Positions 11,835 through 13,384 of a stretch of DNA of 64,000 bases are shown here, piece by piece. This DNA comes from Escherichia coli O127:H6 str. E2348/69. Its GTDB lineage: Bacteria; Pseudomonadota; Gammaproteobacteria; Enterobacterales; Enterobacteriaceae. Below the pieces are notes generated by a model. The model was given only the letters and a program-made list of their open reading frames with translations, had not been told where the DNA came from and did not search any database. A program made the position numbers and the translations under genes. The stretch lies in NCBI RefSeq assembly GCF_000026545.1, contig NC_011601.1. One strand, given 5' to 3'. Numbering within the stretch: the first letter of the stretch is position 1; each line of letters begins with the position of its first letter.

Positions 11835-13384
11835 CTGTCTCTTGATCAGATCTCCTGATCAAGAGACTTCATCACCAGGTAACCCTCAACCATATCCTGA
11901 AGTCTGAACCAGCCATCCCACATGACTACCCAACCGGGGCGACCGGTGCGTTTGCTGTCATGCCATCGCCCCAGTTTCGCCAGTTTCAGACAGGCCCATT
12001 TCAGTGTCGGCATCTGTGACGGAAGCGGTTTTCCTTCCAGCTTAACCCACAGCAGTTTCCACTCTGTCGGCGTCAGTATTTTCTCACAGCTGTCATTTTG
12101 TGTTTCTTCACTGATACCGCCCTGCCGCAGGCCCAGCACCCGCACCGCGATAAACGCCTTGATAACCACCATGCGCTCGAGGTTATCCCGGGTCTGCATT
12201 CGCAGCGATTCCACACATGTACCACCACTTTTCCACGCCTTGTGGTATTCCTCTATCAGCCAGCGTCGCTCGTAATGGCTGACGATACGTCGCGCATCGG
12301 CGGCACTCGCCACTTTTTCTGACGTCAGCAGATGCCAGCAGGCGCCGTCCTCTGCCTGCTCCCGGCAACAGACATACGTGAGCGGGAGCGCCTGGCCGCT
12401 GTTGTCGGGATTTTTTATGCTGACTTCGCTGTAACTGATGAACATCCGGGCCTGGCGGGCTGCCCGCCCGCCTTTTTGCATCACATTCAGCGTGTGGCTT
12501 CCCGCGGTTGCCAGGACTTCCGGCAGTTCGAAGAGCTTGCCGGGTGCTTCTTCCAGCCGGCGATTCTGTGCTGCACGCACCACGAAGCGCTGCCCGTGGC
12601 TGACTTTATAATGCAGGTAATGCCAGATATCCGCTTCCCGGTCACAGACAGTGATTACCCGTTTCTGTATCTCCCCCAGCCGTTCGGCCATGCGCTCCGA
12701 AGCCTGCTGCCAGCGGTAACTTTCTTTTTCTTCATAGGGACGTTCTTTTCGCTGGTGCTTAACACCGTAGGTGTCCGTGGCACGACTCCAGCGCTGCTGT
12801 TCGATAAGACCGACTGGCAGGGCGCTGTCGGGGGCGTACATCAGGACAGAGTGAGCCAGCAGCCCGCGCGTCTTCGGGTTAGTGGTGGTATTCCCCAGGT
12901 CATCAGATGCCGTACTGTGACTGAAGTTAATGGTGGTGGTGTCTTCCAGCGCGAGGAGCAGCGGATGAGCCTCACATGCCCTTACAGTGGCGGTAAATCC
13001 GGCTTCGGCAATGGCTTGCGGGGACACAGACGGGTTACGTATCAGGCGGTACGCACCTTCAACCTGAGCAGTGGACTGGGATGATTTCACAATAGAAAGA
13101 CCTGCATGCTGAGCGAGAGAAGAGGCCAGTGACACAAGGCGTCGTGTACGACGCGGATCACCGAGACGGGCATGTCCAAACTGCTCGTTAGCCCATGAAT
13201 AACAATCAGAAAGTACCATAACAGACCCGAAGAAAATGAAATATAAGAGAAGATCAACAGGTGAGGAAAAAGTTCAAAAAATCGCTGCCGGGGAGGAAGG
13301 AAACTACCGGATGGAAAGAGTCCCCCTAAAGCAGACTGACAGACATCACAAATCCCCGGGTGGGGATTTGTGTATAAGAGACAG
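11835..13384 (-). mobile_element. IS4-family, IS50-like insertion sequence (1550 bp) flanked by 9-bp direct repeat ccaccatgc
   Basis: Left end ctgtctcttgatcagatct (IS50 inside-end-like, three GATC sites); right end ctgtctcttatacacaaat on opposite strand (outside-end-like); direct repeats at 11826-11834 and 13385-13393. Confidence 0.9.
11846..13219 (-). CDS. DDE transposase, IS4 family (Tn5/IS50 Tnp-like, divergent)
   Basis: 457-aa ORF with LGDPRRT, LEDTT, VCDREADI, RWLIEEYHKAWKSG, DSKRTG motifs matching Tn5 transposase blocks; stop codon lies inside the inside-end repeat. Confidence 0.88.
   Translation of the reverse strand: MVLSDCYSWANEQFGHARLGDPRRTRRLVSLASSLAQHAGLSIVKSSQSTAQVEGAYRLIRNPSVSPQAIAEAGFTATVRACEAHPLLLALEDTTTINFSHSTASDDLGNTTTNPKTRGLLAHSVLMYAPDSALPVGLIEQQRWSRATDTYGVKHQRKERPYEEKESYRWQQASERMAERLGEIQKRVITVCDREADIWHYLHYKVSHGQRFVVRAAQNRRLEEAPGKLFELPEVLATAGSHTLNVMQKGGRAARQARMFISYSEVSIKNPDNSGQALPLTYVCCREQAEDGACWHLLTSEKVASAADARRIVSHYERRWLIEEYHKAWKSGGTCVESLRMQTRDNLERMVVIKAFIAVRVLGLRQGGISEETQNDSCEKILTPTEWKLLWVKLEGKPLPSQMPTLKWACLKLAKLGRWHDSKRTGRPGWVVMWDGWFRLQDMVEGYLVMKSLDQEI

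Follow-up and report, generated by a model that had tools for sequence, protein, structure and literature searches.

A copy of ISEc13 in ygfK of Escherichia coli E2348/69 and the terminal structures of related IS50-subgroup elements

A complete ISEc13 copy interrupts ygfK

The window analyzed here (64,000 nucleotides of contig NC_011601.1 from Escherichia coli O127:H6 strain E2348/69) contains a 1,550-bp insertion sequence at positions 11835 to 13384. The element is flanked by a 9-bp target-site duplication (CCACCATGC, a direct repeat at 11826 to 11834 on the left and 13385 to 13393 on the right) and splits ygfK, which encodes a putative selenate reductase subunit. In RefSeq, ygfK is annotated as a pseudogene with a 5' fragment (11150 to 11834) and a 3' fragment (13385 to 15807), both on the plus strand; removal of the element together with one of the duplicates restores an intact 1,032-aa reading frame. 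The element is oriented antisense to ygfK (i.e., its transposase is encoded on the minus strand).

Over all 1,550 bp, with both ends located, the element is 100% identical to the copies of ISEc13 annotated by RefSeq in E2348/69, which carry the RefSeq/PGAP name "IS4-like element ISEc13 family transposase." Its transposase is WP_000244358.1, the same 457 aa as in annotated ISEc13. The name ISEc13 as used here rests on this RefSeq/PGAP annotation. Under the ISfinder convention, two copies belong to the same insertion sequence at roughly ≥95% protein identity and ≥90% DNA identity. The window element and ISEc13 of E2348/69 show no difference (1,550 bp, the 457-aa transposase, and the ygfK insertion are all the same), and ygfK is disrupted identically in the annotated E2348/69 record. 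The feature in the window is an ordinary copy of ISEc13, an already named element of the IS4 family, IS50 subgroup. A preliminary description of this DNA had suggested an undescribed IS50 relative, and had itself stated that a near-identical named element would speak against this suggestion; such an element exists. The same description had set the limits at 11846 and 13384, of which the left one is properly 11835.

ISEc13 occurs at 30 places on the E2348/69 chromosome, and near-full copies are present in 873 of 5,426 complete E. coli genomes; the copies are 98 to 100% identical. Our literature search for ISEc13 returned passing mentions only. The insertion inactivates ygfK in a well-studied EPEC strain and, as a routine copy, is of little consequence for the window.

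The transposase is of the IS50 subgroup

The transposase gene (11846 to 13219, minus strand) is a single uninterrupted open reading frame of 457 aa without a frameshift. Its product matches the Tn5 transposase (E = 6e-84; 436 aligned columns, 42% of them identical), is 42.6% identical to the wild-type IS50R transposase in a global alignment, and scores 514 bits against the NCBIfam profile NF033590 (IS4 family transposase; cutoff, 160). Residues D93, D193, and E323 (codons at 12941 to 12943, 12641 to 12643, and 12251 to 12253, respectively, minus strand) align with the catalytic residues D97, D188, and E326 of Tn5, and the Y-(2)-R-(3)-E-(6)-K signature is intact (Y316, R319, E323, and K330, equivalent to Y319, R322, E326, and K333 of Tn5). 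The pairwise alignment with the Tn5 transposase thus bears out what had been read by eye, namely, conserved Tn5 blocks with an inferable DDE triad in an otherwise divergent protein. For the IS50 subgroup, De Palmenaer et al. (2008; PMC2266710) describe a DDE transposase that carries the YREK signature and is encoded by one ORF with no frameshift, and ISEc13 has each of these features. It is not IS50 itself, as its identity to IS50R of CP074235.1 is 65% at the nucleotide level and 42.6% at the protein level.

Most of the residues known as DNA contacts of the Tn5 transposase are conserved in ISEc13. Because the DDE and YREK residues are intact, most of these contacts are kept, and the 19-bp ends are of the inside-end (IE) and outside-end (OE) types, ISEc13 would most likely transpose by the Tn5 cut-and-paste mechanism. 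The equivalent of Met56, the start of the Tn5 inhibitor, is Q52 in ISEc13. Codons 31 to 80 contain no ATG and, as alternative starts, only GTG (codons 44 and 65); by this sequence test, a Tn5-type internal start is absent, although a truncated product could still be made.

Ends, putative promoter, and leader

To compare the ends, we used those of a real IS50R record (CP074235.1) and a set of 49 unique complete related elements, whose transposases are 42 to 77% identical to that of ISEc13 and in which the same ends recur. The left 19 bp of the window element (CTGTCTCTTGATCAGATCT; 11835 to 11853, plus strand) contain two GATC sites and match the IE of the IS50R record at 19 of 19 positions, which bears out the match given in the preliminary description. 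The right 19 bp (CTGTCTCTTATACACAAAT; 13366 to 13384, minus strand) are of the OE type, include the DnaA-box-like TTATACACA, and match both the IS50 OE and the mosaic end at 17 of 19 positions. The three Dam sites previously noticed near the inside end lie at 11844, 11849, and 11857, and the distance from the tip of the IE to the transposase stop codon is 11 nt, which also holds for IS50 and all of the relatives. Members of the IS50 subgroup have ends of the form CW------Y---CA-A--W-, lengths of 1,350 to 1,550 bp, and direct repeats of 8 to 9 bp (Table 1, PMC2266710); both 19-mers of ISEc13 fit this consensus at each specified position, and its length (1,550 bp) and 9-bp duplication lie within these ranges.

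The putative transposase promoter (13249 to 13277, minus strand) was located by homology. It comprises a -35 element, TTGAAC (13272 to 13277), a 16-nt gap, and a -10 region, ATCTTC (13249 to 13254), inside which a GATC (13252 to 13255) begins exactly 16 nt after TTGAAC. Of 44 unique leaders, 39 contain the motif (T/C)(T/G)GAA(C/T)-N16-GATC with invariant spacing; IS50 is among these, and there the same position is the Dam-repressed T1 promoter (PMC4265352). A generic sigma-70 scan called no promoter anywhere in the element, and we infer both the promoter and the transcription start of ISEc13 from these homologs. The transposase gene would be under the control of a weak homolog of the IS50 promoter P1, and the GATC in the -10 region would render this promoter Dam sensitive. 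Together with the three GATC sites at the inside end, this constitutes a Dam-type layout at the level of sequence.

The distance from the outside end to the ATG is 165 nt in ISEc13 vs 103 to 109 nt in its closest relatives (71 to 77% identical). The leader-length comparison revealed a lineage-specific extra segment of about 59 to 62 nt (13281 to 13339, minus strand), which lies between the outside-end hairpin described below and the T-run and -35 element and which recurs in the ISEc13-like copies of 207 plasmid records. Two candidate features of this segment were set aside: (i) a second terminator before the U6 run, which folds no better than shuffled sequences (z of -0.3 to -0.8); and (ii) a fossil outside end, GGGACTCTT, at element positions 58 to 66. 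The latter lies ~50 nt before TTGAAC, near the usual OE-to-(-35) distance; it scores 5.9 bits with the covariance model, with support for the T-run/GAAC part only, and is speculation.

A terminator-like stem-loop precedes the promoter in relatives

A stem of 10 to 14 bp with a loop of 3 to 7 nt, followed by 5 to 9 T, was found in 30 of 44 unique leaders, where it separates the outside end from the promoter. When 35 sequences were aligned with regard to structure, 97.4% of the cells were paired, and compensatory changes occur at 7 of 12 pairs. Double-change cells number 76 vs 21 +/- 5 in shuffled alignments (0 of 500 shuffles reached 76), and the covariation score is 0.469 vs 0.03 to 0.125 with slid partners; the alignment was fitted to the model structure, which biases the pair counts upward, and the slid-partner control argues against this bias being the whole effect. 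Covariation of this extent shows that the predicted base-paired structure near the outside end is conserved among the relatives. An independent scanner likewise reported terminator-like structures in ISPpr3 (L006) and in another relative (L003). As variable loops had put the 3' arms out of register in a plain MAFFT alignment, RNAalifold returned a weak consensus there (-1.9 kcal/mol), and we used per-sequence folds and a covariance-model alignment instead.

The covarying GC-rich stem-loop with its 5 to 9 T in the relatives would function as an inward-facing, possibly bidirectional, rho-independent terminator, and it would shield the transposase gene against transcripts entering from host DNA, as in IS200, whose left-end stem-loop blocks impinging transcription (PMC4513863). 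In both systems, the stem-loop is located just inside the element end (nt 12 to 34 in IS200 and about nt 16 to 45 here) and upstream of the transposase start. The two differ in that IS200 belongs to an unrelated family with a Y1/HUH transposase and single-strand transposition, that terminator function in the IS50 subgroup is deduced from sequence and covariation only, and that ISEc13 lacks a proper U-tract.

The outside-end hairpin of ISEc13

The outside-end hairpin of ISEc13 (13347 to 13372, minus strand) has perfect 11-bp arms (13347 to 13357 and 13362 to 13372) and a 4-nt loop. The preliminary description had recognized an inverted repeat here and had correctly placed it upstream of the transposase start; it had given its length as 9 bp, two too few, and had located it just inside the outside end, of which the repeat in fact overlaps the last 7 of 19 bp. 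As RNA, the hairpin is predicted to be stable (z = -5.5; -18.6 to -22 kcal/mol), and it lies 128 to 153 nt upstream of the transposase ATG. The element contains just one other inverted repeat of at least 9 bp with arms within 60 bp, a palindrome at the inside end.

Covariance model R1 matches ISEc13 at 13340 to 13384 (minus strand) with 36 bits (E = 2e-10). In this alignment, ISEc13 has a shortened stem that lacks the upper part, an interrupted U-tract (UUUGUGAUGU), and three basal pairs (CAC/GUG) beyond those of the family model. Judged from the covariance-model match, the hairpin is a degenerate homolog of the terminator stem-loop of the family. It retains the GC-rich stem and short loop of an intrinsic terminator and has no U-rich tract 3' of the stem (AUGUCUGU follows the full stem, and UUUGUGAU follows the GC core). 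The terminator scanner made no call at this hairpin, and a search of Rfam returned no family match to the element on either strand. Because the upper stem has been lost and ~62 extra bases precede the T-run, the hairpin probably represents a terminator in weakened form, or a pause site, and not a translational fold-back; given the missing canonical U-tract, termination may be absent altogether. We assign a probability of roughly 85% to the overall account, i.e., a known ISEc13 copy with conserved ends, a Dam-type promoter, and a hairpin that represents a weakened homolog of a terminator.

An unlikely but not negligible alternative is that the hairpin does nothing at all, the ~62-nt insertion having broken the terminator and the palindrome having persisted only through the recency of the copies. 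The broken U-tract, the lost upper stem, and the silence of the terminator scanner are all consistent with such a relic, and the 98 to 100% identity among copies implies scant time for decay. Against it, the 11-bp stem is perfect, the three gained basal pairs suggest that its stability has been maintained, and plasmid copies recorded as "about 94% diverged" retain the neighboring segment, a comparison that concerns that segment only.

A palindrome at the inside end

At the inside end, RNA folding and a repeat search revealed a palindrome absent from the preliminary description (11837 to 11867; z of about -4.1 to -4.7), with perfect 13-bp arms (11837 to 11849 and 11855 to 11867) and a 5-nt loop. 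It contains the third GATC and the transposase stop codon, and its inner arm encodes the K-S-L-D of the transposase C terminus. Perfect inside-end repeats of at least 7 bp are present in 29 of 46 unique relatives. In the inner arm, the codons TCT and CTT reach 97% fixation; at 43 other columns with conserved Leu, Ser, or Arg, the most frequent codon accounts for 23 to 70%. By this measure of codon usage, the palindrome is constrained at the nucleotide level (i.e., at synonymous sites) across the clade.

Both terminal palindromes overlap the 19-bp transposase-binding ends, and at the inside end the inner arm repeats end positions 3 to 15 in inverted form (positions 1 to 11 in the Vibrio element L007), which gives it the look of a pseudo-end. 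Such features would suit a role as DNA, either as extra binding sites for the transposase or host proteins or as cruciforms, instead of as RNA. We consider this improbable, since the upper-stem sequence at the outside end varies freely while its pairing is kept, which fits a nucleic acid structure and not a sequence-specific protein site, and since the loop at the inside end ranges from 5 to 22 nt, a variation that a dimeric protein site would not easily accommodate.

In IS10 and IS50, control of read-through RNA by fold-back structures is established. The preliminary description likened the outside-end hairpin to these structures; in this view, it would curb translation of the transposase from read-through RNA while the native RNA escapes, and the hairpin is indeed stable and would be confined to read-through RNAs. 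However, it is self-contained and local, 128 to 153 nt away from the ATG that it would have to control. In a partition-function calculation with the native start placed by homology, the SD-AUG region has a mean unpaired probability of 0.46 in native RNAs and 0.47 to 0.49 in read-through RNAs; the ribosome-binding site is thus predicted to be equally accessible in both, with no sequestration in the read-through form. In the relatives, moreover, the hairpin leads directly into a T-run upstream of the -35 element, which is the architecture of a terminator and not of ribosome-binding-site sequestration. We rejected the fold-back reading on the equal accessibility and regard it as very improbable.

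The ends are conserved across the subgroup

The contrast that first drew attention to this element, between a diverged transposase and IS50-like ends, is real; it is not special to ISEc13, being common to the whole IS50 subgroup. The OE of ISEc13 is the consensus OE of the 49 related elements, 24 of which carry the exact 19-mer; IE positions 1 to 14 are at least 90% conserved, and the IS50-type IE 19-mer recurs across several lineages. Going by this conservation, the IS50-like ends reflect strong purifying selection on transposase-binding ends across the subgroup. That ISEc13 gained them by recombination or end exchange with IS50 and not by descent is scarcely credible despite the 19/19 IE match at 65% overall nucleotide identity, as the same ends occur in dozens of Vibrio, Shewanella, Photorhabdus, Xenorhabdus, Serratia, and Salmonella elements (transposases 42 to 77% identical), the OE of ISEc13 matches the family consensus and not the IS50 OE, and the identity does not extend past the 19-bp boundary, a pattern common to the relatives.

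Comparison with IS50/Tn5 and other members of the subgroup

ISEc13 resembles IS50/Tn5 in its DDE/YREK transposase, its ends (IE, 19/19; OE, 17/19) with Dam sites in the IE and a DnaA-box-like motif in the OE, its 9-bp target duplication, the 11-nt distance from the stop codon to the IE tip, and the -35/N16/GATC promoter layout. It differs in sequence (about 42 to 43% protein and 65% nucleotide identity), in having Q52 in place of M56 with no internal ATG nearby, in the number of promoter GATC sites (one vs two in IS50), and in the length of the leader (165 nt vs 92 nt). Moreover, IS50 has neither an OE-proximal hairpin, for which there is no room because its -35 element is at nt 31 to 36, nor an IE palindrome, whereas ISEc13 has both.

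The transposases of ISPpr3, ISPlu9, and unnamed IS50-subgroup elements from Vibrio, Photobacterium, Shewanella, Xenorhabdus, Serratia, and Salmonella are 50 to 77% identical to that of ISEc13, and these elements share its OE and IE types, promoter motif, and stop-to-tip distance. Most of them also have an IE palindrome and an OE-proximal stem-loop; ISPlu9-type elements have neither. In the relatives, a full terminator (i.e., the stem plus 5 to 9 T) abuts the -35 element in a leader of about 100 to 109 nt, whereas the stem of ISEc13 is shortened, its T-run is broken, and it contains about 62 additional nt.

These comparisons lead us to a tentative proposal, to which we give somewhat less than even odds: most members of the IS50 subgroup, excluding IS50 itself and the ISPlu9 type, would carry two tip structures, of which the terminator has been disabled in ISEc13 by the ~62-nt insertion, a change that could have aided its expansion to about 30 copies. 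The basal pairs of the terminator would overlap OE positions 16 to 19, with its T-run abutting the -35 element of the Dam-sensitive promoter, and the IE palindrome would pair the inside end with the last transposase codons, fixed at synonymous sites. We did not find the two structures described in the literature for the IS50 subgroup, where an earlier mention of end-proximal structures may nevertheless exist. Because it lacks both structures, which most relatives keep, the textbook model IS50/Tn5 looks atypical of its own subgroup. If the structures work as proposed, the IS200-type insulation of a transposase gene from host transcription would extend to the IS4 family, and the inside end would provide a testable example in which a structure overlapping a transposase-binding end constrains a coding sequence. 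This by-product of the comparison is of modest interest for transposon regulation.

Terminator-like hairpins antisense to the transposase were also observed within the ORF (five on the plus strand vs 1.5 expected). Their positions are not conserved in ISPpr3 or L003, and their T-runs seem to arise incidentally from Lys/Glu-rich codons.

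An ISEc13 copy within ygfK

The element spans 11835-13384 (1,550 bp), with its transposase gene on the minus strand, and is flanked by a target duplication in the form of a perfect 9-bp direct repeat, CCACCATGC (11826-11834 and 13385-13393). With the element and one copy of the repeat taken out, ORFs of 231 and 805 aa become a single intact ygfK frame of 1,032 aa. The annotated E2348/69 record has the same layout (i.e., a ygfK pseudogene split by ISEc13 transposase WP_000244358.1, between mocA and ssnA). The insertion neighborhood (10250-15807 and beyond) is a selenium/molybdenum-cofactor cluster comprising yqeB, yqeC, mocA, ygfK, ssnA, and ygfM; the antisense insertion sequence may have a polar effect on ssnA and ygfM.

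A megablast search of complete E. coli genomes matched the span over 1,550/1,550 bp, at 100% identity, to features annotated as "IS4-like element ISEc13 family transposase." The element is thus a named insertion sequence, ISEc13 (IS4 family, IS50 subgroup), with every testable defining feature present, and this identity refutes the proposal in the preliminary description that it is an undescribed IS50 relative. That description of the element was otherwise largely correct, except for the boundary and the stem length of a terminal hairpin. The same search placed ISEc13 at 30 sites in the E2348/69 chromosome and at further sites on its plasmid. Copies with at least 80% query coverage occur in 873 of 5,426 complete E. 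coli genomes, versus 2,991 with any match, indicating that partial remnants are common.

Diverged transposase and conserved ends

The transposase is encoded by a single long ORF (457 aa; 11846-13219, minus strand). It matched the Tn5 transposase in a phmmer search of PDB sequences (E = 6e-84; residues 6-453), with 42% identity over 436 aligned columns, and showed 42.6% identity to wild-type IS50R Tnp in a global alignment; the nucleotide identity between ISEc13 and IS50 elements is 65%. ISEc13 is not an isoform of IS50. The protein scored 514 bits (cutoff, 160) against NCBIfam NF033590 (IS4 family transposase), its catalytic triad (D93, D193, and E323) aligned with Tn5 D97, D188, and E326, and its Y-2-R-3-E-6-K signature is intact. 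Most of the DNA-contact residues of Tn5 are kept (R26, R27, R30, R62, R210, K244, W298, W323, H329, K330, R342, and N348). Tn5 Met56, where the inhibitor starts, corresponds to Gln52, and no in-frame ATG occurs from codon 31 to codon 80, so that no Tn5-type inhibitor is apparent.

We compared the 19-bp ends with those of a real IS50R copy (plasmid CP074235.1). The left, inside-type end (IE), CTGTCTCTTGATCAGATCT, is identical to the IS50 inside end (19/19), as stated in the preliminary description. The right, outside-type end (OE), read inward as CTGTCTCTTATACACAAAT, matches the IS50 outside end at 17/19 positions, with mismatches at positions 4 and 18. A protein search yielded >1,300 relatives, including ISPlu9 and ISPpr3 family members and unnamed elements at 50 to 77% identity, and DNA was obtained for six loci and 80 more from species-representative genomes. 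Among these were 49 unique complete elements, whose transposases are 42 to 77% identical to that of ISEc13 and 40 to 57% identical to that of IS50. Their consensus OE is the exact ISEc13 19-mer, which occurs in 24 other elements; the transposases of 22 of these are only 46 to 53% identical to that of ISEc13, the other two being loci L002 (77%) and L003 (74%). IE positions 1 to 14 are at least 90% conserved, and full 19/19 matches to the IS50-type IE turn up in the ISEc13 clade, among Photorhabdus elements, and in three distant lineages. Most elements resemble IS50 in having the stop codon 11 nt from the IE tip. This recurrence shows that end conservation is a subgroup-wide property, consistent with the published IS50-subgroup end consensus (PMC2266710), and that a diverged transposase with conserved ends is not unusual.

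Putative terminator near the outside end

An inverted-repeat search found exactly two terminal palindromes in ISEc13, both with folds far more stable than those of shuffled sequences (z, -3.8 to -5.5). The one near the OE had been noted as a 9-bp inverted repeat; it is present, with perfect arms of 11 bp (13347-13357 and 13362-13372). In most relatives, the order in the transposase sense is OE positions 1 to 19, a stem-loop starting at about OE position 16 with an upper stem that varies between elements, 5 to 9 T residues, and GAAC. A stem of 10 to 14 bp with a 3- to 7-nt loop and a T-run was found in 30 of 44 unique leaders, each with a z of -3.7 or lower. IS50 and ISPlu9-type elements, unlike most relatives, lack the hairpin.

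A covariance model was built from the relatives' leaders, and its 35 matches were realigned. On this alignment, which is fitted to the structure and therefore inflates pairing, 97.4% of cells hold standard pairs, and 7 of 12 stem pairs show compensatory changes. Double-change cells numbered 76, against 21 ± 5 in shuffles (0/500 reached 76), and the covariation score was 0.469, versus 0.03 to 0.125 with partners slid by 1 to 3 columns. A register-free tabulation of individual folds agrees, with 3 to 6 pair types at stem positions 23 to 27. An independent consensus scanner found the site terminator-like on the transposase-sense strand in L003 and L006 (ISPpr3). The best reading of these sequence patterns is that the stem-loop and T-run form an inward-facing intrinsic terminator between the end and the promoter.

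The ISEc13 hairpin itself was not called as a terminator by the scanner. The covariance model aligned 13340-13384 (minus strand) at 36 bits, with the lower stem kept, the variable upper stem missing, and UUUGUGAUGU as the U-tract. We conclude that it is a degenerate homolog of the putative family terminator. Its OE-to-ATG distance is 165 nt, versus 103 to 109 nt in the relatives with 71 to 77% transposase identity, which lack a segment of ~62 nt (13281-13339) between the hairpin and GCGATTTTTTGAAC (T-run/-35). By itself this segment shows no significant folding; it also occurs, in a variant ~94% identical in the leader segment, in the ISEc13-like copies of 207 plasmid records, most of which are conjugative E. 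coli plasmids. Within it, GGGACTCTT (element positions 58 to 66; 13319-13327) is faintly OE-start-like, and its spacing from the -35 is close to the usual one; it might be a fossil outside end, a reading that received no support from the covariance model.

The earlier suggestion that the hairpin is a translation-limiting fold-back is not supported by the predicted folds. With native transcription assumed to start ~35 nt after the -35 start by homology with IS50, the SD-AUG region has a predicted unpaired probability of 0.46 in native RNAs and of 0.47 to 0.49 in RNAs that begin either at the OE or 80 nt outside the element, and the hairpin folds locally, as a closed unit 128 to 153 nt upstream of the ATG.

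Promoter and Dam sites

GATC sites in the element lie at 11844, 11849, 11857, 13156, and 13252. In 39 of 44 unique leaders, IS50 included, a -35-like hexamer (TTGAAC in most, CGGAAC in IS50) is followed after exactly 16 nt by GATC; 24 of these leaders carry it in duplicate, as GATCNGATC, and the other 15, ISEc13 among them, carry one copy. In the IS50 T1 promoter, two GATC sites mediate ~8-fold Dam repression (PMC4265352). The invariant spacing points to Dam control of transposase promoters as an ancestral trait of the IS50 subgroup. By positional homology with IS50, we infer a putative ISEc13 promoter with TTGAAC at 13272-13277 and GATC (13252-13255) in the -10 region (minus strand); a generic promoter scan found none in ISEc13.

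Inside-end palindrome

The second palindrome, absent from the preliminary description, has perfect 13-bp arms (11837-11849 and 11855-11867) and holds the stop codon and the third GATC. In 29 of 46 unique relatives, end positions 2/3 to 11-15 are repeated perfectly in inverted orientation 5 to 22 nt inside the IE, and these relatives belong to the same clade as the terminator-bearing ones; IS50 and ISPlu9-type elements are without it. The outer arm is the transposase-binding site, and the inner arm codes for a conserved C-terminal K-S-L-D/E. In a codon alignment of 31 elements with 45 conserved Leu, Ser, and Arg columns, 43 columns have codon entropies of 1.1 to 2.5 bits (top codon, 23 to 70%), whereas S452 is TCT in 29/30 and L453 is CTT in 28/29 (0.2 bits each). 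By this codon usage, the inner arm is constrained at the nucleotide level beyond protein requirements.

The variation in loop length is more in keeping with a nucleic acid structure than with a dimeric protein site. As a weak hint, three variants (TTAAGAGAC twice and TTGAGAGAC once) retain G-U pairing on one strand only, the one running inward from the IE. The palindrome might stabilize the transposase mRNA as a 3' stem-loop, favor cis action by making ribosomes pause shortly before the stop codon, or act as a barrier to antisense transcription entering from the IE side. Neither strand has a U-tract after the palindrome. We found no description of this palindrome or of the family-wide terminator in the literature searched, of which coverage was incomplete; the novelty of both is uncertain and their scope modest.

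Other observations

On the plus strand, antisense to the transposase, 12299-12716 contains five terminator-like hairpins with T-runs, where 1.5 ± 1.1 were expected; the sense strand has none. The strongest, GGCGGGCTGCCCGCCCGCC with a TTTTT tail, is at 12454-12472. The five hairpins face incoming ygfK transcription in this insertion, show no positional conservation in L003 or L006, and probably arise incidentally from A-rich Lys/Glu codons. At a Vibrio fluvialis locus (L007), a Y1-type transposase gene (IS200/IS605-like, PF01797; 2434-2880) adjoins the IS50-subgroup element.
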